Position numbers and translations under genes: made by a program. From the IMG/VR virus record IMGVR_UViG_3300027418_000370: a stretch of DNA of 64,000 nucleotides; one strand, given 5' to 3'. The stretch is from a virus. Shown in pieces: positions 53,988 to 64,000 of the stretch. A model generated the notes under the pieces. That model had not been told where the DNA came from and did no database searches. It saw nothing but the letters and a program-made list of their open reading frames with translations. Each line of letters begins with the position of its first letter. Position 1 is the stretch's first letter.

Positions 53988-54812
53988 ATGGCAAAACACG
54001 TTGTTGTTAGTCTTTCAGGAGGGATGGACTCCTCTACGTTACTTCTAAAAGCTCTTAAAGAGTTTGATACAGTAACAGCAATGTCTTTTGATTACGGTCA
54101 AAAGCACAGAGTAGAGCTTGAAAGAGCTCAAGAGTTGGTAAAGTACTTGAGTGATAACGGTCACTCTGTTAATTACCGAGTAATCAAACTAGACGGCTTG
54201 GTTGACCTGCTCAACTCGGCTCTAGTAACAGGTGGTGCTGAAGTACCTGAAGGTCATTACGCAGAAGAGAATATGAAAGCTACTGTTGTACCGAACCGAA
54301 ACAAAATCTTCAGTTCAATTTCTCAAGCTGTAGCACTTTCTATTGCAAATGAAACTCAGGAAGAAACTTCCATTGCGTTGGGCATTCATGCTGGTGATCA
54401 TGCGATCTATCCGGACTGCCGACAGGAATTTCGGGATGCAGATGACGCTGCTTTCCGCACTGGTAACTGGGACGCTGAGCGCGTATCTTATTGGACTCCT
54501 TATCTTGAAGGCGATAAGTTTACTATTCTAGAAGACGGACTGGTATTATGTGAGAAGCTAGGAATAGACTTTGATGAAGTTTATAAGCGTACTAACACCT
54601 CTTATAAGCCAATCAAGTACTATCACCGTCCAGAGACTAATGCCTGGACTTGGTACTCAGACTACAAATCAGCTTCTTCAGTAGAGCGTATTGAAGCTTT
54701 TATTAAGCTAGGACGACCTGATCCTGTAGCGTACGCTGATGAGACCGGCCCAGTGAGCTGGGAGGTAGCACGTGAGCATGTTGAAAAAGTTTTAGCAGCA
54801 CACGCAAATTAA
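53988..54812 (+). CDS. queC: 7-cyano-7-deazaguanine (preQ0) synthase
   Basis: SGGMDS, FDYGQKH..E, VPNRN, YPDCR. Confidence 0.95.
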   Translation: MAKHVVVSLSGGMDSSTLLLKALKEFDTVTAMSFDYGQKHRVELERAQELVKYLSDNGHSVNYRVIKLDGLVDLLNSALVTGGAEVPEGHYAEENMKATVVPNRNKIFSSISQAVALSIANETQEETSIALGIHAGDHAIYPDCRQEFRDADDAAFRTGNWDAERVSYWTPYLEGDKFTILEDGLVLCEKLGIDFDEVYKRTNTSYKPIKYYHRPETNAWTWYSDYKSASSVERIEAFIKLGRPDPVAYADETGPVSWEVAREHVEKVLAAHAN

Positions 54813-54813
54813 T

Positions 54814-54845
54814 TAGGGGGGAGCTTGTCTCCCTCCCTATTTATT
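54814..54845 (+). terminator. Hairpin after queC (likely terminator) overlapping the next promoter
   Basis: TAGGGGGGAG-CTTGT-CTCCCTCCCTA followed by TTTATT. Confidence 0.6.
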
Positions 54846-54853
54846 CTTATATT
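54825..54853 (+). promoter_or_regulatory. TTG-N20-TATATT promoter for the lipoprotein-trx-queD-queE unit
   Basis: Motif match directly before aptamer copy 1. Confidence 0.65.
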
Positions 54854-54854
54854 A

Positions 54855-54886
54855 AGAGTGTCGGAGCACCACTATAAAAACACCGG
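54855..54886 (+). ncRNA. preQ1 class I-like riboswitch aptamer, copy 1
   Basis: P1 AGUG/CACU, loop UCGGAGCAC, tail AUAAAAAC-ACCGG; loop CGG.G pairs with tail C.CCG, ending at the ATG. Confidence 0.65.
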
Positions 54887-55480
54887 ATGAAAAAGTTACT
54901 ACTATTATTACCTCTGCTCTGGGCTTGTGAAACGATTGAGCCCTATGTTCCTGAACCTTGTCAGGAATGTACTACTATTCATAGAGTAGATACTATTCAA
55001 CATCCTGGAACTTATTATCAAGACGGATACTGGCATTTACAATATTCAGGTATAAATTACTTCCAGGTTATCGGTCAGTTAGATTCCCTACATCCTCAAT
55101 ATGTTATAAATGGAGTACCGCTACTTCAAGTAGTATATGATAGCGATACCTGGTATGTATTTGATACCATTGCTATGCAAATACCTCTGTACTCTCCATT
55201 TACTTCCCAATATACTTCCCCAAGCTTTAATTACCCTATCTCAACAGGAGATACTACAATCTATATTACAAATCCTAACTACATTATAAATGCAGTAGGT
55301 TATACGTTTGGAAGTACAAACTTTGTGAATGCTATGCACACATACCAGCCCCGGTGTGAAGTACTGGTGTTTGAAGAGATGGTGGGAGATACGATTAATG
55401 TCTTCACAAGAACGCGTTATAACTACGATCTAGGTACTCAGATAATAGTAAACGATACAATTAAAGTTATAGTAGAATGA
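54887..55480 (+). CDS. Lipoprotein
   Basis: MKKLLLLLPLLWAC lipobox. Confidence 0.7.
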   Translation: MKKLLLLLPLLWACETIEPYVPEPCQECTTIHRVDTIQHPGTYYQDGYWHLQYSGINYFQVIGQLDSLHPQYVINGVPLLQVVYDSDTWYVFDTIAMQIPLYSPFTSQYTSPSFNYPISTGDTTIYITNPNYIINAVGYTFGSTNFVNAMHTYQPRCEVLVFEEMVGDTINVFTRTRYNYDLGTQIIVNDTIKVIVE

Positions 55481-55683
55481 AAAAACAGTTATTAGTAGAG
55501 CCTGTTCTTCCGAAAAGTAAGAACATTGAAAAGATGCCTGATCAGAAATGGCATCAAATTATCTCATTTATTAAATCCGGAGTCCGTATTCTTGGTTACG
55601 CACTGCTTATTGTTGATATCCCAACAGCAATGGTGGTACTGGTCTTGAGTGAGGCAGTCGGCATAATCGAAGAATTAGTATGA
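55477..55683 (+). CDS. Small two-TM membrane protein
   Basis: H..ISFIKSGVRILGY...SEAVGIIEELV; start may be the internal MPDQKWH. Confidence 0.6.
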   Translation: MKKQLLVEPVLPKSKNIEKMPDQKWHQIISFIKSGVRILGYALLIVDIPTAMVVLVLSEAVGIIEELV

Positions 55684-55940
55684 AGTATTTGTATTTCTCA
55701 GCACCTTGGTGCGGTCCTTGTAGAATGTTAGGTCCAACAATGGAAAAAGTAGCAGCAGAAGGAATTGCTGTAGAAAAAATTAACATCGATACGGAAGAGC
55801 TCCTAACGATGGAATACACAGTCCGCAGTGTACCTACTGTAGTACTGATTGATGATTCTGGAAAAGAATTTGCTCGTACAGTTGGCGCTAAGCCATTAAG
55901 TCACTATATTGAACAATATAATAATTTTACAAATGTATAA
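55680..55940 (+). CDS. trxA: Thioredoxin
   Basis: FSAPWCGPC, VRSVPT. Confidence 0.93.
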   Translation: MKYLYFSAPWCGPCRMLGPTMEKVAAEGIAVEKINIDTEELLTMEYTVRSVPTVVLIDDSGKEFARTVGAKPLSHYIEQYNNFTNV

Positions 55941-56391
55941 GTCAAGAAAGAAGTTTGATGGCTTTAGTACTTGCTTCCGTCAATGGAAAGCGAATACTAC
56001 ACACTGTCAGTACCTACACGGCTATGATGTAGAGTTTGAAGTAACGTTTGAAGGAGATCTCGATCACCGTAACTGGGTATGGGACTTCGGAGGTATGAAG
56101 CGAGCTAAGAACCTGATCGACGGTATGCAACCTAAAGAATGGATGGAGCATATGTTCGATCATACTGTAGTTGTAGCAGAAGACGATCCTGAACTAGATA
56201 ACTTCAGAGATATGGCCGACAGAGGCGTTATTCAGTTACGAGTAGTAGAGGCAGTAGGTGCAGAGAAATTTGCTGAATTTCTTTACCACAAGCTAAATGA
56301 CTTCGTACAGACAGAGACAGACGGCCGAGTTAAGGTCATTAAAGTTAAATTTATGGAGAACCACAAAAACTCAGCAATCTATGGCGCTTAA
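55933..56391 (+). CDS. queD: 6-carboxytetrahydropterin synthase
   Basis: HCQYLHGY, WVWDFG, FDH, AE, terminal E...NSA; start MYKS at 55933. Confidence 0.9.
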   Translation: MYKSRKKFDGFSTCFRQWKANTTHCQYLHGYDVEFEVTFEGDLDHRNWVWDFGGMKRAKNLIDGMQPKEWMEHMFDHTVVVAEDDPELDNFRDMADRGVIQLRVVEAVGAEKFAEFLYHKLNDFVQTETDGRVKVIKVKFMENHKNSAIYGA

Positions 56392-57157
56392 GAGAATTGA
56401 AGATTATAATAAGGTACTGCCGATTGTAGAGCTTTACCGATGTGTACAATCAGAGGGTAGTCGTTTTGGACGTCCTACTATCGCTGTACGTACTACAGGA
56501 TGTACTCACCGCTGCTACTTCGGTGAAGGAGGTTGGTGTGATAGCTGGTATACCTCTATCCATCCAGAGAAAGGTGGTTATTCATTTAACGATATTATTA
56601 AGATTTACGATGAGAATCCTCACGTAAAGGAGATGATGCTAACAGGAGGTAGCCCAACAATGCACCCAGCCTTAGTAAATGAGATTACTCACTTTGCTAA
56701 AGAAAGAGGTATTATTGTTACTATTGAGACTGAAGGTTCTCACTTCCTTGAGACGGACTATCCTCTTGATCTTATCTCTCTATCTCCTAAGTTCTCTAAT
56801 AGCGTACCCGTAGTAGGAGCTGTTACACCTCAAGGCGCTATTGCAGATGAGAAGATGATTAAGCAACATAACAAGTTCCGTATCAACAAAGATGCTATCC
56901 GTCAGACTTTGGACTATCATACTGATTACCACTTTAAGCCGGTATGGGACGGTAGCGCAGCGAATCTAGTAGAGATTGAAGCATTTAGGGTTGAGATGAA
57001 TATTCCTAAAGACAAGACTTTTGTTATGCCTGCAGGTGATACTCGTGAGACTTTAATTGAAATGTACCCAATCGTATTTGAGATGTGTGCCGAGCACGGT
57101 TACAATATGACCGGACGTGATCACATCATTGCCTACGATACTAAGAGAGAAGTATAA
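56381..57157 (+). CDS. queE: 7-carboxy-7-deazaguanine synthase (radical SAM)
   Basis: VQSEG...RTTGCTHRC..WCDS, TGGSP, IETEG, SLSPK, R.H; start MALKRI at 56381. Confidence 0.92.
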   Translation: MALKRIEDYNKVLPIVELYRCVQSEGSRFGRPTIAVRTTGCTHRCYFGEGGWCDSWYTSIHPEKGGYSFNDIIKIYDENPHVKEMMLTGGSPTMHPALVNEITHFAKERGIIVTIETEGSHFLETDYPLDLISLSPKFSNSVPVVGAVTPQGAIADEKMIKQHNKFRINKDAIRQTLDYHTDYHFKPVWDGSAANLVEIEAFRVEMNIPKDKTFVMPAGDTRETLIEMYPIVFEMCAEHGYNMTGRDHIIAYDTKREV

Positions 57158-57339
57158 TGCCAAACGGATACTTAGGAGCTTTATGGTTGATGTGGAGTAA
57201 TAGCGCTATCGAACCAGCACACGTTATTAAAGCCCTAAGTATCTACGGCTATAAATTAGATGCATTAACCAAACAGGGCTTAGTAGCCTCAAATGAAAAT
57301 ACACGTTTTGAATATAAAGAGTATACTTCTTGGAGCTAG
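57157..57339 (+). CDS. Small hypothetical protein
   Basis: TAATG coupling to queE. Confidence 0.4.
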   Translation: MPNGYLGALWLMWSNSAIEPAHVIKALSIYGYKLDALTKQGLVASNENTRFEYKEYTSWS

Positions 57340-57655
57340 TCTGTTCTTTCTAGGACAAGTAATAACCTTCTACCAGCTTAACGGACAGTTTATCTGGAGC
57401 TGGTTTAAAAAGTACGAATGGGCTGTTGCTCTATTTGGTATACCTATTTCGTTCATTTTTATCTGGGCTACCAGAACAGCAGTCGCTGGCTTTGACGGTT
57501 TACTATGGCCTGCTCGTTTTATAGGATTCGGTACAGGAATGATAGTTTATGCCTTCTGCGTATGGTACTATATGGGAGAGCCGATATCCACTAAGACTGC
57601 TATTAGTCTCCTTCTAGCTCTAGTATTAATCTGTGTTCAAGTACTCTGGAAATGA
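57293..57655 (+). CDS. Four-TM membrane protein, SMR/DMT-like
   Basis: Four hydrophobic segments; C-terminal GEPISTKTAISLLLALV resembles the DMT/SMR GE motif. Confidence 0.55.
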   Translation: MKIHVLNIKSILLGASLFFLGQVITFYQLNGQFIWSWFKKYEWAVALFGIPISFIFIWATRTAVAGFDGLLWPARFIGFGTGMIVYAFCVWYYMGEPISTKTAISLLLALVLICVQVLWK

Positions 57656-57903
57656 GTTATATTATAGGTTCTAAGTGTATAGATGTTAAAGACAGTGGAT
57701 GTATGGATGTATGTCCTGTTGACTGTATATACGAGGACCTACAGCAAATGTTCATTAACCCAGATGAATGTATTGATTGCGGAGCTTGCATTCCAGCTTG
57801 CCCAGTAGAAGCTATTTGGGACAGTGAAGAATGGGCTATTAGGATGGGTGATCAAGCATCTGTACATGCTAACTATAAGCATTTCGGATTAGAATATAAA
57901 TGA
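57652..57903 (+). CDS. fdxA: 7Fe-type ferredoxin
   Basis: CIDVKDSGCMDVCPVDC and INPDECIDCGACIPACPVEAI. Confidence 0.9.
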   Translation: MSYIIGSKCIDVKDSGCMDVCPVDCIYEDLQQMFINPDECIDCGACIPACPVEAIWDSEEWAIRMGDQASVHANYKHFGLEYK

Positions 57904-58085
57904 GAAGAAAAGATATAATAACATTAAATGATGACTGGTATGAAGTTCAGAGAGTACTTAGAGAGGATCGTCAATGGGATGTTGAAATTCTTAAACAGTA
58001 CTGGTCTTGTACACATACCTTCCGTAAAGACGGTCTACTCTATTTTTGTAGAGAGATCCCAAAAATTGAATATCAACAAATATGA
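57900..58085 (+). CDS. Small hypothetical protein
   Basis: ATGA overlaps on both sides. Confidence 0.5.
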   Translation: MRRKDIITLNDDWYEVQRVLREDRQWDVEILKQYWSCTHTFRKDGLLYFCREIPKIEYQQI

Positions 58086-58729
58086 AAGTAACCCTAAATC
58101 ATGTAACTCCGGACGCGGAGAATGCAATTGTAAAAATTGCTAGAGTATCCTCTAAACGTACCGACAAGGTAGAGAAGCCTGAAAGGCTACTACACTACCT
58201 TATCAAGCATAAGCATTGGTCTCCATTCGAGCACGGATATATGTCTGTAGAGATTGAGACTTCTAAAGCTATTGGTATTCAGTTAATTCGTCACCGCTCT
58301 TTTACCTACCAAGAGTTCTCACAACGTTACCAGGATGTAAGCTTAATTGACGGTATGTTTGAGAGTGTAGAGCTAAGAAAACAAGCTGAAGATAATAGAC
58401 AAAGCTCCACTGAAGTATTTAACCCAGACGTATTCTATGCCGGATACAGTACTGCAGCTTCAGCTCAGATCGGTAAACACTTTAGAGCTTCCCAAGATCT
58501 TTATAAGCGACTCCTTGATGAAGGTGTAGCAAGAGAAGTAGCTCGAATGGTATTGCCACTATCTACTAAAACTAAGATTCACATGACCGGTTCTATTCGT
58601 TCATGGATCCACTTCTTAGATCTCAGAGATGATGCTCATGCTCAGAAAGAGATTCAAGATGTAGCAAAAGAGATCAAGAAGATCTTTATCGAACAATTCC
58701 CAGTAATCTCAAAATCACTAAACTATTAA
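58082..58729 (+). CDS. thyX: Flavin-dependent thymidylate synthase
   Basis: HWSPFEH, RHRSFTYQEFSQRY, AREVARMVLP, AQKEI. Confidence 0.96.
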   Translation: MKVTLNHVTPDAENAIVKIARVSSKRTDKVEKPERLLHYLIKHKHWSPFEHGYMSVEIETSKAIGIQLIRHRSFTYQEFSQRYQDVSLIDGMFESVELRKQAEDNRQSSTEVFNPDVFYAGYSTAASAQIGKHFRASQDLYKRLLDEGVAREVARMVLPLSTKTKIHMTGSIRSWIHFLDLRDDAHAQKEIQDVAKEIKKIFIEQFPVISKSLNY

Positions 58730-58731
58730 TT

Positions 58732-59355
58732 ATGAAAAAATGGCAGCACTTTACTTTCTTGTTATGGGTGGCATTCTCGGTTTACTCCTTTACAGCCTCT
58801 GGTCAGAAATCTTTAAGAGACAGCGTTGAATGGAACACTCCTTACTTTAGAATCTGGTATTCAGAACCTCTAGAGAATCCTTTATCAGTACGTTACGGTG
58901 TAGCTTGTCCTACAGGTACTGCTTCTAGATCAGGAATGGACTTCCACAAAGAAAAAGGAATTCATACTTCCGATAACGATGACTATGTAGCCAACGAATG
59001 GGACAAAGGTCATATGGCTCCTGCCGCAGACTTTAACTGTACCCGTGAAATGCTATTGGAGACATTTACATACGTTAACTCTTCCTTGCAGCACCAATCT
59101 CTCAATAGAGGTGTATGGAAGAAGCTAGAGACTCGAGAAAGAGAATTAGCATTAGGACACGAAGTACAAGTCTTTATCCGAGTAGAATTCTCAACTAATC
59201 CTGAAAGAGTACCTGGCGGTGCTGCTATCCCTTCCGGATACTATAAGGAACTAAAAGTTGCAAATCGCCGAGAATGTTACTATTTTAAGAACGAGAAACC
59301 TGTAACATCAGAGCTCTCAGATTATAAATGTCCTTGCAGAAATGCAATTAATTAG
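58732..59355 (+). CDS. DNA/RNA non-specific endonuclease with signal peptide
   Basis: DKGHMAPA, N...Q...LNRGVWKKLE, IPSGYYK; hydrophobic N-terminus ending ASG-Q. Confidence 0.9.
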   Translation: MKKWQHFTFLLWVAFSVYSFTASGQKSLRDSVEWNTPYFRIWYSEPLENPLSVRYGVACPTGTASRSGMDFHKEKGIHTSDNDDYVANEWDKGHMAPAADFNCTREMLLETFTYVNSSLQHQSLNRGVWKKLETRERELALGHEVQVFIRVEFSTNPERVPGGAAIPSGYYKELKVANRRECYYFKNEKPVTSELSDYKCPCRNAIN

Positions 59356-59734
59356 TACGCATCCTATTAAGAAATCTGACCTCGGCTTTCATGCTAACCT
59401 CTTTGGAGGTAAGCTGTTAGCCTGGTTGGATGCTGCTGGAGCAGCTATGGCAATGGAGGTAGCTGATACTCCTAGAATGGTTACTATCAAGATAGACGAA
59501 TGTCTTTTTAAGAAACCAGCCAAAGAAGGTCAGTTGTTAAAAATTTATGGAAAGGTAGCAGAAGTTGGAAATACGTCTTTAACTCTCTATCTTGAAGCTA
59601 GAGCACATAACGTATACTCAGGAAGTCAGTCGGTAATACTCTCCACTAAGATTAAGTTTGTACGTATTGATGAAAATAATGAACCAATTCCAATCTCAGA
59701 TAGAATTAGATTAAAGTATGCAACAGTTAATTGA
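59342..59734 (+). CDS. Hotdog-fold acyl-CoA thioesterase (YciA-like)
   Basis: NLFGGKLLAWLDAAG, VT, F.KP...G, VGNTS, FV.ID...P.P. Confidence 0.85.
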   Translation: MQLISTHPIKKSDLGFHANLFGGKLLAWLDAAGAAMAMEVADTPRMVTIKIDECLFKKPAKEGQLLKIYGKVAEVGNTSLTLYLEARAHNVYSGSQSVILSTKIKFVRIDENNEPIPISDRIRLKYATVN

Positions 59735-60224
59735 CGCAAAGGATATTGATATCCAAACTAAGATCATCGCTAAGAAGATCTCAGCAGAGCACAATGGAGA
59801 TAAAACTCCAATCGTTATGGTAGGGTTATTGAATGGAGCATTTATGTTCTATGCAGACCTAGTACGCAACATTACAGTAGACGTAGAATGTGATTTTATG
59901 AGAATAAGATCATACGTCAGTAAAAAGAAACAAGGTGATATTCAGATCACCAAAGACTTAGAGACGCCTGTTAAAGGAAAGCACGTCTATATCGTAGACG
60001 ACATTTACGATTCGGGTAATACAATGGATGCTGTGATTGAATACCTTCAGGTCAAACACCCAGCCTCGATTAATATTGTTACTCTACTGACTAGAGAAAC
60101 TTCTAGGATACCCCCAGTACCTTCCTATCATGCATTCACTATCAAGGATGAATGGGTAGTAGGCTTTGGAATGGATAACGATAAAGGTTATGCAAGAAAT
60201 TACAGAAGTGTGTTTGCACTCTGA
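59718..60224 (+). CDS. hpt: Purine phosphoribosyltransferase (HPRT-like)
   Basis: LNGAFMFYADL, SY, PRPP loop IVDDIYDSGNT, WVVGFGMD. Confidence 0.9.
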   Translation: MQQLIDAKDIDIQTKIIAKKISAEHNGDKTPIVMVGLLNGAFMFYADLVRNITVDVECDFMRIRSYVSKKKQGDIQITKDLETPVKGKHVYIVDDIYDSGNTMDAVIEYLQVKHPASINIVTLLTRETSRIPPVPSYHAFTIKDEWVVGFGMDNDKGYARNYRSVFAL

Positions 60225-60241
60225 AATAGTTTTCGTATATT
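60214..60241 (+). promoter_or_regulatory. TTTG-N19-TATATT promoter for folE-dpdA-dpdN-queF
   Basis: Motif match directly before aptamer copy 2. Confidence 0.7.
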
Positions 60242-60245
60242 AATA

Positions 60246-60281
60246 AGAGGTGTCGAAGCACCACCTAAAAAAACAAATTAT
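60246..60281 (+). ncRNA. preQ1 class I-like riboswitch aptamer, copy 2, in the folE leader
   Basis: P1 AGGUG/CACCU, loop UCGAAGCAC, tail AAAAAAAC; fills the space between the promoter and the folE ATG. Confidence 0.65.
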
Positions 60282-60992
60282 ATGGCAGATAAAAAACGTT
60301 ATGATGTAGAACTCGCTCAAGCCGGGTTCGCTAATGGTGTCTCTTCTCAACTGGCTGAGAAGTTTAAAGTTCATTCTATGAACTCTATGCACTTAACAGA
60401 TCAAGAGAAGCATACTATTATTGAGAATGCTGCAAAGGCATTCGGAGAATTCCTAGATGCTCTAGGATGTGACTGGCGTGATGACCCTAACTCATCTGAT
60501 ACTCCTCGTCGAGTAGCTAAGGCTTATGTAAACGACTTATGGGCAGGACGATTCAATCCTATGCCTGAGATCACAGCCTTCCCTGCTGATGGTTATGATG
60601 GTATTGTATTTGAGGGTAATATTCCTTTGACCTCGATGTGTTCGCATCACCACCAGACTATTCAAGGTCGAGTTCATATTGCTTACATTCCAGGTCCTGG
60701 AGGTAAGGTAATCGGTCTATCTAAGCTCAATCGTATTGTAGAGCATTTCGGACGTAGAGGTGCTATTCAAGAGCAGCTTACTGTTGCTATTCATAATGCA
60801 GTTCATACTGTTTGTGAAGGTAATGTAGGTGTAGCAGTTATGGTAGAAGCTACTCACAATTGTGTATCATGCCGCGGTACTAAACACGCTGGTGCGTCAA
60901 TGAAGACTTCTAAGCTATCAGGTAGCTTTATGTACGAAGACTCAGCACGAGCAGAATTTTATGAATTTGTTAAAGGTTACGCATGCAAATGA
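60282..60992 (+). CDS. folE: GTP cyclohydrolase I
   Basis: DTPRRVAK, SMCSHHH, GLSKLNR, IQEQLT, HNCVSCRG. Confidence 0.96.
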   Translation: MADKKRYDVELAQAGFANGVSSQLAEKFKVHSMNSMHLTDQEKHTIIENAAKAFGEFLDALGCDWRDDPNSSDTPRRVAKAYVNDLWAGRFNPMPEITAFPADGYDGIVFEGNIPLTSMCSHHHQTIQGRVHIAYIPGPGGKVIGLSKLNRIVEHFGRRGAIQEQLTVAIHNAVHTVCEGNVGVAVMVEATHNCVSCRGTKHAGASMKTSKLSGSFMYEDSARAEFYEFVKGYACK

Positions 60993-61495
60993 AACGAGCA
61001 AAAAGTGTCCCATTTATCGACGAAGTAGAGATCTTCAACGATACGTTCGGTAAGCCGAACAATTACACTCCTATTATTCCTAATGATAAGAAACTTACTA
61101 ACTTCGTAGTAGATTTTATTAAAGAAGAGACTGACGAACTAGCACACGCTATTGAAGAGAAAGATATTGTAGAAGTACTAGATGCTATCTGCGATCTACT
61201 TTACGTAGCTATTGGAAATGCTACCATGGTGTTTGGATTGAAGAATAAGATCGTACCAGCTTACCGAGAGGTACAGGCATCGAATATGTCTAAGAGCTGT
61301 GCGACTGTAGAAGAAGCAGAAGAGACTATTGCTCTCCGTTCTCAACAGCACGGCGAGTGTTACTTCCGTAAGGTGGGAAACCGTTATGTTGTTTATCGCA
61401 AAGCGGACGATAAGGTTATGAAATCTATTAACTACTTCGCTCCTAATCTTGAGCAGTTCTTTACTCCAGAAGAAATCGAAAACGCTAAGCAATGA
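60983..61495 (+). CDS. All-alpha NTP pyrophosphatase (MazG/PRA-PH-like)
   Basis: IKEETDEL...EVLDAICDLLYV...EVQASNMSK...KVMKS. Confidence 0.85.
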   Translation: MQMKRAKSVPFIDEVEIFNDTFGKPNNYTPIIPNDKKLTNFVVDFIKEETDELAHAIEEKDIVEVLDAICDLLYVAIGNATMVFGLKNKIVPAYREVQASNMSKSCATVEEAEETIALRSQQHGECYFRKVGNRYVVYRKADDKVMKSINYFAPNLEQFFTPEEIENAKQ

Positions 61496-61689
61496 GTCCA
61501 AAAGAACTGGTAGAACAAAATAGTATCTTCTTAGAAGACCTACAACGCTGGGTTGTACCTTTAGAAGTAGTAGAGGAAGCCTTGCAGATCAAGAGCGCTA
61601 AAGAGCTTGAAGATAATTTAGGTAAACTTCAAGATAGTATGTTAGAATTAAACAAGTTATTTAACGATTTAGGAAACGCCAATGGTTAA
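61492..61689 (+). CDS. Small hypothetical protein
   Basis: Coupled ORF. Confidence 0.5.
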   Translation: MSPKELVEQNSIFLEDLQRWVVPLEVVEEALQIKSAKELEDNLGKLQDSMLELNKLFNDLGNANG

Positions 61690-62509
61690 GATTGCACACG
61701 AGAGTCCTATTGCTAGCTTTGACACTATTCAGCAGTATACGGATTATGATTACGCTTTAGTACATCTCTTTGAAGAGAACGAAACTTATTTAGATAAGTT
61801 TGTAGAAGCACGAGATAAAGGACGAGAGATTATTCTCGATAACTCTATCTTTGAATTAGGAAAAGCTTTTGATTCAGAACGCTTTGCTTTCTGGATTGAT
61901 TATTTAAAGCCTACCTGGTACATCGTACCTGATGCATTAGAGAATGTAAAGCGTACTTGTGCTAATATGGCTGAGTGGAACTTTAAGTATGCAGATCATC
62001 TAGCAGCACCTAGTAAAAAGATTGGAGTACTACAGGGAAAGACTTACTCTGAGCTTATCAATTGCTATGACTACATGATTAATATAGCAAAGGTAGATAT
62101 GGTGGCTATCTCTTTCGATTACAGTTATTACGAACAGCTCGTACCACACCCTAACAAGTATGTTAGCTGGATGCTAGGCAGAGTTGTGCTCTTAGGTAAG
62201 ATGTTACGTGATGGAGTAATCAACCCAGATATCCCTCACCACCTACTAGGCTGTGGACTTCCTCAAGAGTTTGCTTTCTATAAAGACTACGATTGGATCT
62301 ACTCACTAGATACTTCTAACCCAGTAGTACACGGTTTGTTGGGAATCGAGTATAAAGATCAAGGGTTGTGGGATAAGGCATCAATCAAGTTATTTGAGAT
62401 GATTAATATGACTCCTACCTCTGAGCAGGTTACTTCAGCAGTTTATAATGTTCAACGCTTTAGATGGTTCGCACATGGTAGCAACTCGTCCGTGGATAGC
62501 ATTCTTTAG
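61682..62509 (+). CDS. dpdA: TGT-fold 7-deazaguanine transglycosylase (DpdA3-like)
   Basis: IILDNSIFE, IVPD, GVLQG, HHLLG, SLDTS motifs; context among que genes. Confidence 0.8.
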   Translation: MVKIAHESPIASFDTIQQYTDYDYALVHLFEENETYLDKFVEARDKGREIILDNSIFELGKAFDSERFAFWIDYLKPTWYIVPDALENVKRTCANMAEWNFKYADHLAAPSKKIGVLQGKTYSELINCYDYMINIAKVDMVAISFDYSYYEQLVPHPNKYVSWMLGRVVLLGKMLRDGVINPDIPHHLLGCGLPQEFAFYKDYDWIYSLDTSNPVVHGLLGIEYKDQGLWDKASIKLFEMINMTPTSEQVTSAVYNVQRFRWFAHGSNSSVDSIL

Positions 62510-63035
62510 TCAGACTGGATCTGAGATTGTTCAGGTTAGTAAGCAGTTAGGTCGCTGGCCTGACCTTATTATTACTAATATCAGGCCTTCTCATTTACGT
62601 ACTATACATCCTGAGATTCCTACAGACCTATTAAAGTATACTCAGAATAGACCTGAGGAGCATGAGCTTGTATGGCTGATGAGTGCAATAAGTGATAACC
62701 CTGTTGTAACTTTACACGGATGGTTAAGAGTAATGCCTGCTTCTATCTGTAATCGCTATGAAATCTATAACGGACATCCAGGATTGATTACTAAATATCC
62801 AGACCTAAAAGGAAAAGATCCTCAATATAGAGCCTGGGAAGGTAACTATAAGACTGCTGGCTGTGTTATTCACAAAGTAACTGCCGGAGTAGATGAAGGA
62901 GAAGTTCTAGTGGAGCGAGAAAGTATACATAAGATGTTGCCTAAGAACGATATTTTTCGTATCTTACATGACACATCAGTAGAGATGTGGATAGAATTTT
63001 TACATAATAAACTATGGTTAGACGAATTGCATTAG
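62475..63035 (+). CDS. dpdN: PurN-like formyltransferase (DpdN-like, preQ1 N-formylation)
   Basis: FFSQTGSE, LHGWLRVM, NGHPGL, GCVIHKV..GVDEG; overlaps dpdA. Confidence 0.8.
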   Translation: MVATRPWIAFFSQTGSEIVQVSKQLGRWPDLIITNIRPSHLRTIHPEIPTDLLKYTQNRPEEHELVWLMSAISDNPVVTLHGWLRVMPASICNRYEIYNGHPGLITKYPDLKGKDPQYRAWEGNYKTAGCVIHKVTAGVDEGEVLVERESIHKMLPKNDIFRILHDTSVEMWIEFLHNKLWLDELH

Positions 63036-63532
63036 TAGGAGCTAGTAGTACTGGTAAGACTACTGTGTATGAGTTATTGAAAGCTAAACTACCTAAGTAT
63101 GAGTTTATTAACGAAAGTACTCGTACGGTAGCTAAGTTTGGCTTTCCTATTAACGAAGCAGGTACTACTGAGACTCAGTTAGCTATTTCTTCTTTTCACT
63201 TAGAGGCTTTGCTTAAGCCTCATAGTTTGATTCTAGATCGTTGTTATCTAGACTTAGTTGTATACTCTAAGCATATGCCTGCTTTATCTTCTCAAGGCTT
63301 AGACTTTATTGAAGATACTTGGACTAGAGTGCAGGATGAGTATACGCACTATATTTATTTCCCTATTGAATTCGATGCTGTGGATGATGGTCAGCGCAGT
63401 GTAGATGAAGCTTGGAGAAAGATTATTGATGAAGAGTTTAAGTATCAACTCGATTTAACTGACCGTCATTATTTAACTGTTACTGGCTCACCATTGCAGC
63501 GAGTAGATCAAATTTTAAAATACATAAAGTAA
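63014..63532 (+). CDS. P-loop nucleotide (dNMP-type) kinase, AAA_28-like
   Basis: GASSTGKTT, E..R, ILDR...D, DDGQR, GSP.QR. Confidence 0.75.
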   Translation: MVRRIALVGASSTGKTTVYELLKAKLPKYEFINESTRTVAKFGFPINEAGTTETQLAISSFHLEALLKPHSLILDRCYLDLVVYSKHMPALSSQGLDFIEDTWTRVQDEYTHYIYFPIEFDAVDDGQRSVDEAWRKIIDEEFKYQLDLTDRHYLTVTGSPLQRVDQILKYIK

Positions 63533-64000
63533 ATGGAAGAAGTAAAGAACTACAATGCAGTCGTTGAGATTGCTGGTAAACACCTCGGTAAGGTAGGTGG
63601 AGAAGGTTACTCAGATCAGTACAATGCTGAGTTGCTAGTAGCAGTACCTCGTTATTTAAACCGAGAAGCTTACGGAATTGAGGAGAGTAATCTTCCATTC
63701 GTAGGAGTAGATGCTTGGAACGCTTATGAAGTTTCAGCTATTACTAAAAAAGGTCAGCCTGTAGCAGGTATGTTAAAGATTGTATGCCCAGCTAATACAG
63801 AGTTTCACGTTGAGTCAAAGTCTATCAAATTATACTTGAACTCTTTGAATATGACTCCGATGGGTCAGACAGCTAAGGAGTGTATCAAGGAGATTGAAAC
63901 AACAGTAGCTAAAGACCTAACTGACCTACTAGGAGGAAATGTAACCTGTACCTTCTTCGGCAATACATACACTCCAGAGTTTGAGTTTGATGGCTTTACA
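63533..64000 (+). CDS. queF: preQ0 reductase QueF, bimodular type (3'-truncated)
   Basis: Manual translation: LG...Y...Y...LL..VPR...GVDAWNAYEVS...GQP...VESKSIKLYLNS (QueF motif). Confidence 0.92.
   Translation, partial: MEEVKNYNAVVEIAGKHLGKVGGEGYSDQYNAELLVAVPRYLNREAYGIEESNLPFVGVDAWNAYEVSAITKKGQPVAGMLKIVCPANTEFHVESKSIKLYLNSLNMTPMGQTAKECIKEIETTVAKDLTDLLGGNVTCTFFGNTYTPEFEFDGFT

Follow-up and report, generated by a model that had tools for sequence, protein, structure and literature searches.

Genes and Leader Elements in the Window

The window analysed here, a stretch of 64,000 nucleotides, comprises bases 13418-77417 of a 124,656-base IMG/VR virus record. We searched the whole record and found two copies only of a small leader element, copy A before folE and copy B before the queD-queE operon. 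Judging from the content of the downstream genes, both copies lead operons of the 7-deazaguanine pathway. The genes and signals concerned are listed below.

53988-54812, + strand: queC (PF06508, E 2.6e-38), same pathway, upstream of copy B
54816-54836, + strand: strong terminator-like hairpin of 8 bp (6 G-C) followed by a U-rich tail, upstream of copy B
54887-60224, + strand: operon behind copy B, holding queD and queE
54887-55480, + strand: first ORF behind copy B, lipoprotein-like, 197 aa (signal MKKLLLLLPLLWAC...)
55680-55940, + strand: thioredoxin, copy B operon
55909-56391, + strand: QueD, copy B operon
56297-57157, + strand: QueE, radical-SAM, copy B operon
57652-57903, + strand: ferredoxin, 2x[4Fe-4S], copy B operon
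60213-60241, + strand: predicted promoter-like site of the folE operon (TTTGCA, 17 nt, TATATT)
60282-60992, + strand: folE, GTP cyclohydrolase I (PF01227, E 1.6e-43)
60983-64000, + strand: remainder of the folE operon
60983-61495, + strand: NTP pyrophosphohydrolase, second gene of the folE operon
61682-62509, + strand: DpdA, 65% identical to DpdA of immuto_2-6A
62448-63035, + strand: DpdN formyltransferase, 59% identical to DpdN of immuto_2-6A
63014-63532, + strand: kinase, thymidylate-kinase-like ATPase, folE operon
63533 onwards, + strand: QueF, interrupted by the window end

The folE product is 75.5% identical to FolE of Flavobacterium phage immuto_2-6A. An earlier note on this DNA had listed folE, NTP-PPase, dpdA, dpdN, kinase and queF as genes of the 7-deazaguanine pathway, and this list proved right. 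A 65-aa ORF also belongs to the operon, and folE and the next ORF overlap (60983-60992).

The operon behind copy B begins with the lipoprotein-like ORF, a 68-aa ORF, thioredoxin, QueD, QueE, ferredoxin, ThyX and a nuclease, and it ends with a 4HBT thioesterase and then a phosphoribosyltransferase (59718-60224). The thioredoxin and the ferredoxin may be reductants that the phage supplies for QueE. The 197-aa lipoprotein-like ORF had no Pfam or PHROG match, and its relatives were found at three IMG/VR loci only; the first ORF of the queD-queE operon in other phages is an unrelated protein of 85-107 aa. Because the terminator-like hairpin lies directly after queC, queC is taken as a separate transcription unit outside both leaders.

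The 7-deazaguanine clusters of many such phages contain a phosphoribosyltransferase, an NTP pyrophosphohydrolase and a thymidylate-kinase-like ATPase. The presence of these three genes hints that the base is handled at the nucleotide level, beside DpdA transglycosylation.

Directly 5' of the folE ATG (60282), positions 60246-60281 read AGAGGUG-UCGAAGCAC-CACCU-AAAAAAAC-AAAUUAU, as noted before. The 9-nt loop beginning with U and ending with AC and the A-rich tail ending in C were likewise found in copy A, and C60261, G60258 and C60274 lie where they had been placed. A second element with a different stem that still pairs had been reported near 54855; it is present and starts at 54857 (AGUG/CACU). 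The parts of the two copies are as follows.

60249-60277, + strand: copy A, whole element, before folE
60249-60252, + strand: copy A, 5' strand of P1, GGUG, ending in G60252, the conserved closing G that corresponds to G5 of the Tte (Thermoanaerobacter tengcongensis) aptamer
60253-60261, + strand: copy A, loop UCGAAGCAC, by comparison with the class I contacts (PMC11625349)
60253, + strand: copy A, U60253, the U6 equivalent of the loop
60256-60258, + strand: copy A, P2 5' strand, A60256-G60258
60261, + strand: copy A, C60261, equivalent to the specificity C and preceded by A (the type II 'AC')
60262-60265, + strand: copy A, P1 3' strand CACC, by covariation
60266-60273, + strand: copy A, A-rich L3 tail UAAAAAAA, -16 to -9 relative to AUG
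60274-60277, + strand: copy A, 3' strand of P2, CAAA, canonical only at the pair C60274-G60258
54857-54884, + strand: copy B, putative aptamer; AUG at 54887
54857-54860 with 54870-54873, + strand: copy B, P1, AGUG with CACU
54861-54869, + strand: copy B, loop UCGGAGCAC, specificity C at C54869
54874-54880, + strand: copy B, L3 AUAAAAA
54881-54884, + strand: copy B, P2 3' strand CACC, which can pair with loop GAG via CAC or CACC

The promoter claimed upstream of copy A was recovered as a sigma-70-like TTTGCA-17-TATATT, and it would put the +1 of the folE operon at about 60248, one base 5' of P1. For copy B, the nearest promoter-like site (54825-54853) would put the transcription start inside P1. 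Thus, copy B may be complete only through another start or through read-through from queC.

Covariation of the Stem

The earlier note named folE leaders of related phages as the place to look for conservation and covariation. Many related phages carry the element in this place, and their stems show compensatory changes. The 4-bp stem with its 9-10-nt loop was paired in 100% of cells of a 21-sequence alignment, where pair 1 was GC in 12 sequences, AU in 7 and UA in 2, and pair 3 was UA in 17 and AU in 4. The covariation score of P1 in this alignment was not reached by any of 500 shuffles.

IMG/VR was also scanned with the pattern GWGTCGNAGMACCWCNNNAAAAA, in which the outer pair and the complementarity of the two W positions are free, so that the scan avoids selecting for pairing. 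It matched at least 115 IMG/VR stretches, and 80 distinct elements were counted among the matches listed. Among these 80 elements, pair 1 was AU in 51, GC in 17, UA in 10 and mismatched in 2; pair 3 was UA in 65 and AU in 15, with no mismatches; the G-C closing P1 was invariant. A stem of 5 bp had been described for copy A, which is one pair too many: most relatives have a mismatch where copy A has its fifth pair, A60248-U60266 (UU in 39, AA in 11 and CU in 8 of the 80 listed). The conserved P1 therefore has 4 bp, formed by G60249-G60252 and C60262-C60265.

Stem types track clades on the FolE tree, where at least four independent double changes are needed. One of them separates the sister phages L176 (UGAG/CUCA) and L189 (UGUG/CACA).

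The minimum-energy fold of the copy A leader is another hairpin, GGUGU-CGAA-GCACC. We rejected it, since it is broken in 5-9 of the 21 sequences, without covariation or compensatory change. Compared with shuffled sequence, the z-scores were -1.24 and +0.59, that is, hairpin stability is no greater than in the shuffles. Little can be learned here from thermodynamics by itself; the reality of the structure is decided by the comparative data, and they confirm that the element is a genuine conserved structure, beyond chance. A terminator reading was also discarded: the stem has just 4 bp and is followed by A's, and a U-tract is absent on both strands.

Distribution among Phages and Association with Pathway Genes

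We collected FolE homologues at 80 IMG/VR loci (67-94% identity). At about 33 of the 80, the element is located 0-10 bp downstream of a TATATT(A) box and before the start of folE. About 45 folE loci (L135, L139-L143, L154 and others) have a TTTG..TATATTA box and a plain leader of ~17 nt without the element; the gene order at element-less folE loci is folE-queD-queE-PRT. According to the FolE tree, the element was gained or lost several times. Most element-bearing loci have dpdN, and some folE loci have dpdN without the element. Whole phage records hold one or two copies each. The cultured Flavobacterium phage immuto_2-6A has one copy, before folE, and its GenBank record annotates no RNA feature; in Cellulophaga phage phiST (dDG) the element was absent.

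Every distinct element with enough flank stands before FolE, before FolE2, before a small ORF followed by QueD-QueE, or before QueD/QueE directly. The AUG of FolE-type loci lies 31-65 nt from the P1 start. At two loci (L370:3064-4062, minus strand; L335:8367-8942, plus strand), the gene behind the element is FolE2 (type IB GTP cyclohydrolase, PF02649, E about 1e-65) instead of FolE, and in L370 the usual pyrophosphatase and a DpdA-like ORF come after the FolE2 gene. FolE has thus been swapped for the non-homologous, isofunctional FolE2 while the element was kept, which indicates that the RNA tracks the enzymatic step and not a particular gene. At another locus (L322:865-1925, minus strand), a mannose-6-phosphate-isomerase-like cupin and a phosphomannomutase come after folE, where the usual pyrophosphatase/DpdA would stand.

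The element might act as DNA, either as an inverted-repeat operator or as a promoter-proximal site for a transcription factor. Its place 0-10 bp downstream of the TATATT box and the inverted repeat GGTG..CACC would suit this explanation. However, the half-sites covary rather than stay conserved, the conserved spacer and the A-tract with its C are asymmetric, and every copy is on the coding strand of the downstream gene. We consider such a DNA-level role very improbable.

A chance resemblance, in which an ordinary A-rich leader of the Bacteroidota type happens to contain a small hairpin, would agree with the unremarkable z-scores. It would also agree with the relation between the two window copies, which share an exact 15-mer, because at least two matches at three or fewer mismatches arose in 30 of 100 shuffles. 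An exact scan of IMG/VR with the 15-mer gave mainly chance or coding matches and only 6 related loci. However, the 80 distinct conserved variants listed show covariation and an exclusive gene association, and these two facts effectively refute chance. Moreover, a covariance model made from the phage copies only (R1) found nothing besides the elements in 84 loci and in whole phage records. Chance is hardly a credible explanation.

For the hosts, we scanned one genome per species, 185,579 species in all, with an RGWG-stem version of the motif, and obtained 11 matches. Five of them fall in one coding stretch that is conserved across Ruminococcus, Clostridiales and related genomes, a sixth is repeat-like (Pedobacter), and another four stand alone without leader context; these ten were discarded. 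A 5.9-kb contig of a 'Verrucomicrobiales bacterium' MAG (L207, NYWG01000135.1) contains two copies with QueD, QueE and FolE downstream, and we take it, with near certainty, for phage DNA wrongly binned into a bacterial MAG. Among the 185,579 species genomes scanned, we saw no bacterial riboswitch with this form. RF00522 matched 0 of 151 sampled Bacteroidia genomes at E ≤ 0.01 (positive control, 38 of 121 Bacilli), so a host precedent is lacking in this sample, and R1 gave only chance-level matches in the same 151 genomes. Within the genomes searched, this form of the element is phage-specific.

Ligand-Pocket Positions and P2

The ligand contacts of class I preQ1 aptamers have been described (PMC11625349). 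The C directly before the P1 3' strand pairs with the ligand, and this specificity C is preceded by A in preQ1-I types II and III and by U in type I. The first uridine of L1 (U6) reads N9-H of preQ1, the last adenine of the A-rich L3 is also in contact, and the guanine of the P1-closing pair reads the 7-aminomethyl group by its O6.

All four of these positions are invariant or nearly so among the 80 elements listed. The first loop U is invariant, with an L1 of UCG in 78, UUG in 1 and UUCG in 1. The specificity C is also invariant, and the base before it is A in 79 of 80 and U in one. All 80 have an L3 of UUAAAAA, AUAAAAA or alike followed by C, and the next base is A in 79. We checked the Tte and Bsu aptamer sequences in PMC10639078; the phage loop, UCG-N-AG-NA-C, equals the Tte loop, UCG-C-AG-UAA-C, less one L2 nucleotide.

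The pairing of P2 had been called weak in copy A. It is: only G60258-C60274 is canonical, and the step after it is unpaired in the Tte-like register. The pair of loop G with tail C is invariant among the 80 elements listed. The next canonical step, in the Tte-like register with a tail A unpaired, is present in 61 of the 80, a number that A-rich composition could explain. In the 5 elements whose loop N is G, it always faces C or U, yet these come from two lineages only. P2 of Tte itself has two canonical steps out of four (PMC11625349).

A hairpin bound by an RNA-binding repressor of phage or host, or a stabilising hairpin at the 5' terminus, would need no small-molecule sensing. A covarying stem with a conserved loop is equally compatible with a protein operator, and the weak P2 and the sub-threshold Rfam score described below also fit it. 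However, the conserved positions match the preQ1 pocket one-to-one, including the single-stranded A-tract and the C after it, and the element follows the enzymatic step across the replacement of FolE by FolE2. We identified no candidate repressor gene, and for a stabilising hairpin the invariant loop would be needless. We give this explanation only a slight chance.

The same fold could be tuned to another ligand of the pathway, namely preQ0, 7-formamidomethyl-7-deazaguanine (formyl-preQ1 base) or CDG. In the cultured relative the pathway ends in fdPreQ1 and not dPreQ1 (PMC10516641), and the surroundings of the pocket differ from those of Tte, since L2 is one nucleotide shorter and P1 is shorter. 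The presence of dpdN at most element-bearing loci points the same way, though dpdN also occurs at some element-less folE loci. However, the four preQ1-contact positions are unchanged, including the P1-closing G that reads the 7-aminomethyl group (PMC11625349), and DpdN, in the authors' view, may take DNA instead of the free base as its substrate (PMC10516641). Another ligand thus keeps a small but real chance of being the right one.

Relationship to the preQ1-I Family

The earlier note proposed a search with RF00522, and this search did not place the element in the family: copy A scored 9.8 bits (E 2.7 per record) against a gathering cut-off of 39, and the copy B leader was unreported at E ≤ 10. 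The best scores among relatives were 21.8 and 17.9 bits, measured against the same cut-off. A second RF00522 match in a relative, at 19.8 bits, is a hairpin with a 4-nt loop and an A-tail and no aptamer, so we rejected it. Because such an unrelated A-tail hairpin reaches 19.8 bits, RF00522 scores do not discriminate in this range.

At the gathering cut-off, Rfam gave no match over the whole window. Permissive Rfam scans of the two leaders gave only noise, apart from the 9.8 bits of RF00522 for copy A. Full-library scans of the window and the leaders likewise returned no match to preQ1-II (RF01054) or preQ1-III (RF02680), either at the gathering cut-off or at E ≤ 10.

The reciprocal test used 30 Bacilli loci, each holding a genuine RF00522 riboswitch. 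Run without filters, R1 found 14 of these 30 sites at the exact position and on the exact strand, with scores of 11-19 bits that are singly weak. Across the 30 loci R1 gave 25 matches at E ≤ 10, of which 14 were on the riboswitch, whereas a chance match is expected on the riboswitch site about once per several hundred. Since the individual scores are weak, the evidence of this test is the coincidence of positions. Every element with enough flank is also a leader of preQ1/queuosine genes, as is expected of preQ1-I.

On account of the reciprocal recognition by R1, and despite the failed RF00522 cut-off, we treat the element as a preQ1-I-like variant. It appears to be built like a preQ1-I aptamer and to be a divergent variant that lies below the curated threshold for membership. 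Because its score is far below the Rfam cut-off, standard annotation misses it, and the preQ1-I models may need a phage subtype.

Proposed Mechanism

Our preferred reading, to which we give a probability of about 0.7, is a miniature, type-II-like preQ1-I switch that would turn translation off at the folE and queD-queE operons. The earlier note had suggested a preQ1-I-like aptamer in the folE leader that feeds back on 7-deazaguanine DNA modification, and as far as sequence comparison can tell this idea has stood up to the tests of covariation, pocket and gene context. The phage probably throttles the synthesis of the modified guanine for its DNA. All G in the DNA of immuto_2-6A is replaced by fdPreQ1 (PMC10516641), which implies a very high flux through the pathway.

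Each element would be a class I preQ1 aptamer in miniature, type-II-like and placed at the very 5' terminus of a phage mRNA, with a 4-bp P1, a 9-nt loop U-C-G-N-A-G-N-A-C and an A-rich L3 of 7-9 nt. A short P2 would start from the pairing of the loop G with the C that follows the A-tract. The trigger would be the build-up of a free 7-deazaguanine base, most likely preQ1 and possibly preQ0. The ligand would be stacked between the P1-closing G-C and the P2 G-C and paired with the loop-final C, while the A-tract would dock along P1.

The distance from tail C to AUG is mostly 5-8 nt among the 80 elements listed (7 nt in copy A, 5 nt in copy B), and this spacer is too short to hold a terminator between aptamer and AUG. 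The folded knot would end about 1-9 nt from the AUG and block the 30S binding site. Bacteroidia ribosomes make no use of Shine-Dalgarno (SD) sequences. In F. johnsoniae, initiation depends on the structure of the leader and on adenines at -3, -6 and above all -11 to -14 (PMC6847099). Relative to the AUG, the A-tract spans about -9 to -16 in copy A and -7 to -11 in copy B, so that L3 of copy A overlaps the adenine enhancer at -14 to -11 and may have a dual role. The knot would hide the adenines at -11 to -14 that are used by the SD-less Flavobacterium ribosomes. With the knot near the AUG and the enhancer adenines tied up, translation of folE or of the first ORF of the queD-queE operon would be blocked, the switch presumably having OFF polarity. 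The downstream genes, which are tightly packed or overlapping, would be expected to follow.

The earlier note was not aware of riboswitch control of a phage DNA-modification pathway, and no paper linking a riboswitch to 7-deazaguanine modification of phage DNA was found in the literature we searched. We also looked there for preQ1 riboswitches in phages, Dp-1 included, and found none, an earlier mention for Dp-1 being possible. If the preQ1 reading is confirmed, this would be the first demonstrated case of riboswitch control over a viral DNA hypermodification pathway. It would lower the minimum size for a natural ligand-sensing RNA and would show a translational riboswitch operating where ribosomes ignore the Shine-Dalgarno sequence.

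Comparison with Known Systems

The closest characterised relative is preQ1-I type II (Tte; the B. subtilis queC leader; RF00522). There, too, P1, loop, P1', A-rich tail and C follow each other in an H-type layout, a G-C closes P1, and the loop starts with U and ends with AC, in which C is the specificity base. The loop core is shared with Tte (UCG-N-AG in the phages, UCG-C-AG in Tte), and by our own mapping the phage loop AG faces tail CA in the way that Tte A10-G11 faces C30-A31. The preQ1-I riboswitches are likewise associated with preQ1 biosynthesis genes, and in the translational Tte switch the aptamer likewise abuts the start codon.

The phage element is smaller than type II, with a P1 of 4 bp against 5, a loop of 9 nt, or 10 in one variant, where Tte has 10 and Bsu 12, and a total of about 29 nt against 33-34. 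To our knowledge, no characterised aptamer that can be cited has a P1 (4 bp) or a loop (9 nt) so short. In contrast to type II, the phage element has no SD to sequester, its hosts being SD-blind Bacteroidia. Bacterial preQ1-I serves tRNA modification, whereas the phage element belongs to a DNA-modification pathway.

The preQ1-I type III riboswitch (the E. coli / Shigella yhhQ leader) is likewise small and stringent, carries the AC specificity motif, and controls translation with its expression platform inside the knot (PMC11625349). However, it has a UU motif after the P1 5' strand and a pyrimidine-rich stem-loop, while the phage L1 is UCG, and it has an AAGG SD inside P2, while the phage element is without an SD. 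Type III is nearly confined to Pseudomonadota, and the phage element comes from Flavobacterium-type phages. The phage element might be a distinct fourth subtype of class I preQ1 riboswitch, found essentially only in Flavobacteriia-type phages, which at ~29 nt would be the smallest natural riboswitch aptamer and whose L3 would double as the SD-independent translation enhancer of Bacteroidota. Binding of the ligand would then turn translation off by hiding this enhancer, and the virus would gain feedback by a metabolite over the pathway that exchanges all G in its DNA. We put this forward tentatively, at slightly less than even odds.

The closest system as a whole is immuto_2-6A. The paper on this phage (PMC10516641) and its GenBank record describe no regulation, and neither 'riboswitch' nor 'regulat' appears in the paper. 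It has the same gene set in the same order as the window (DpdA 65%, DpdN 59% and FolE 75.5% identical) and the same leader element before folE. A cultured phage-host pair, vB_FspM_immuto_2-6A on Flavobacterium sp. LMO8, thus carries the element and makes the proposed switch directly testable.
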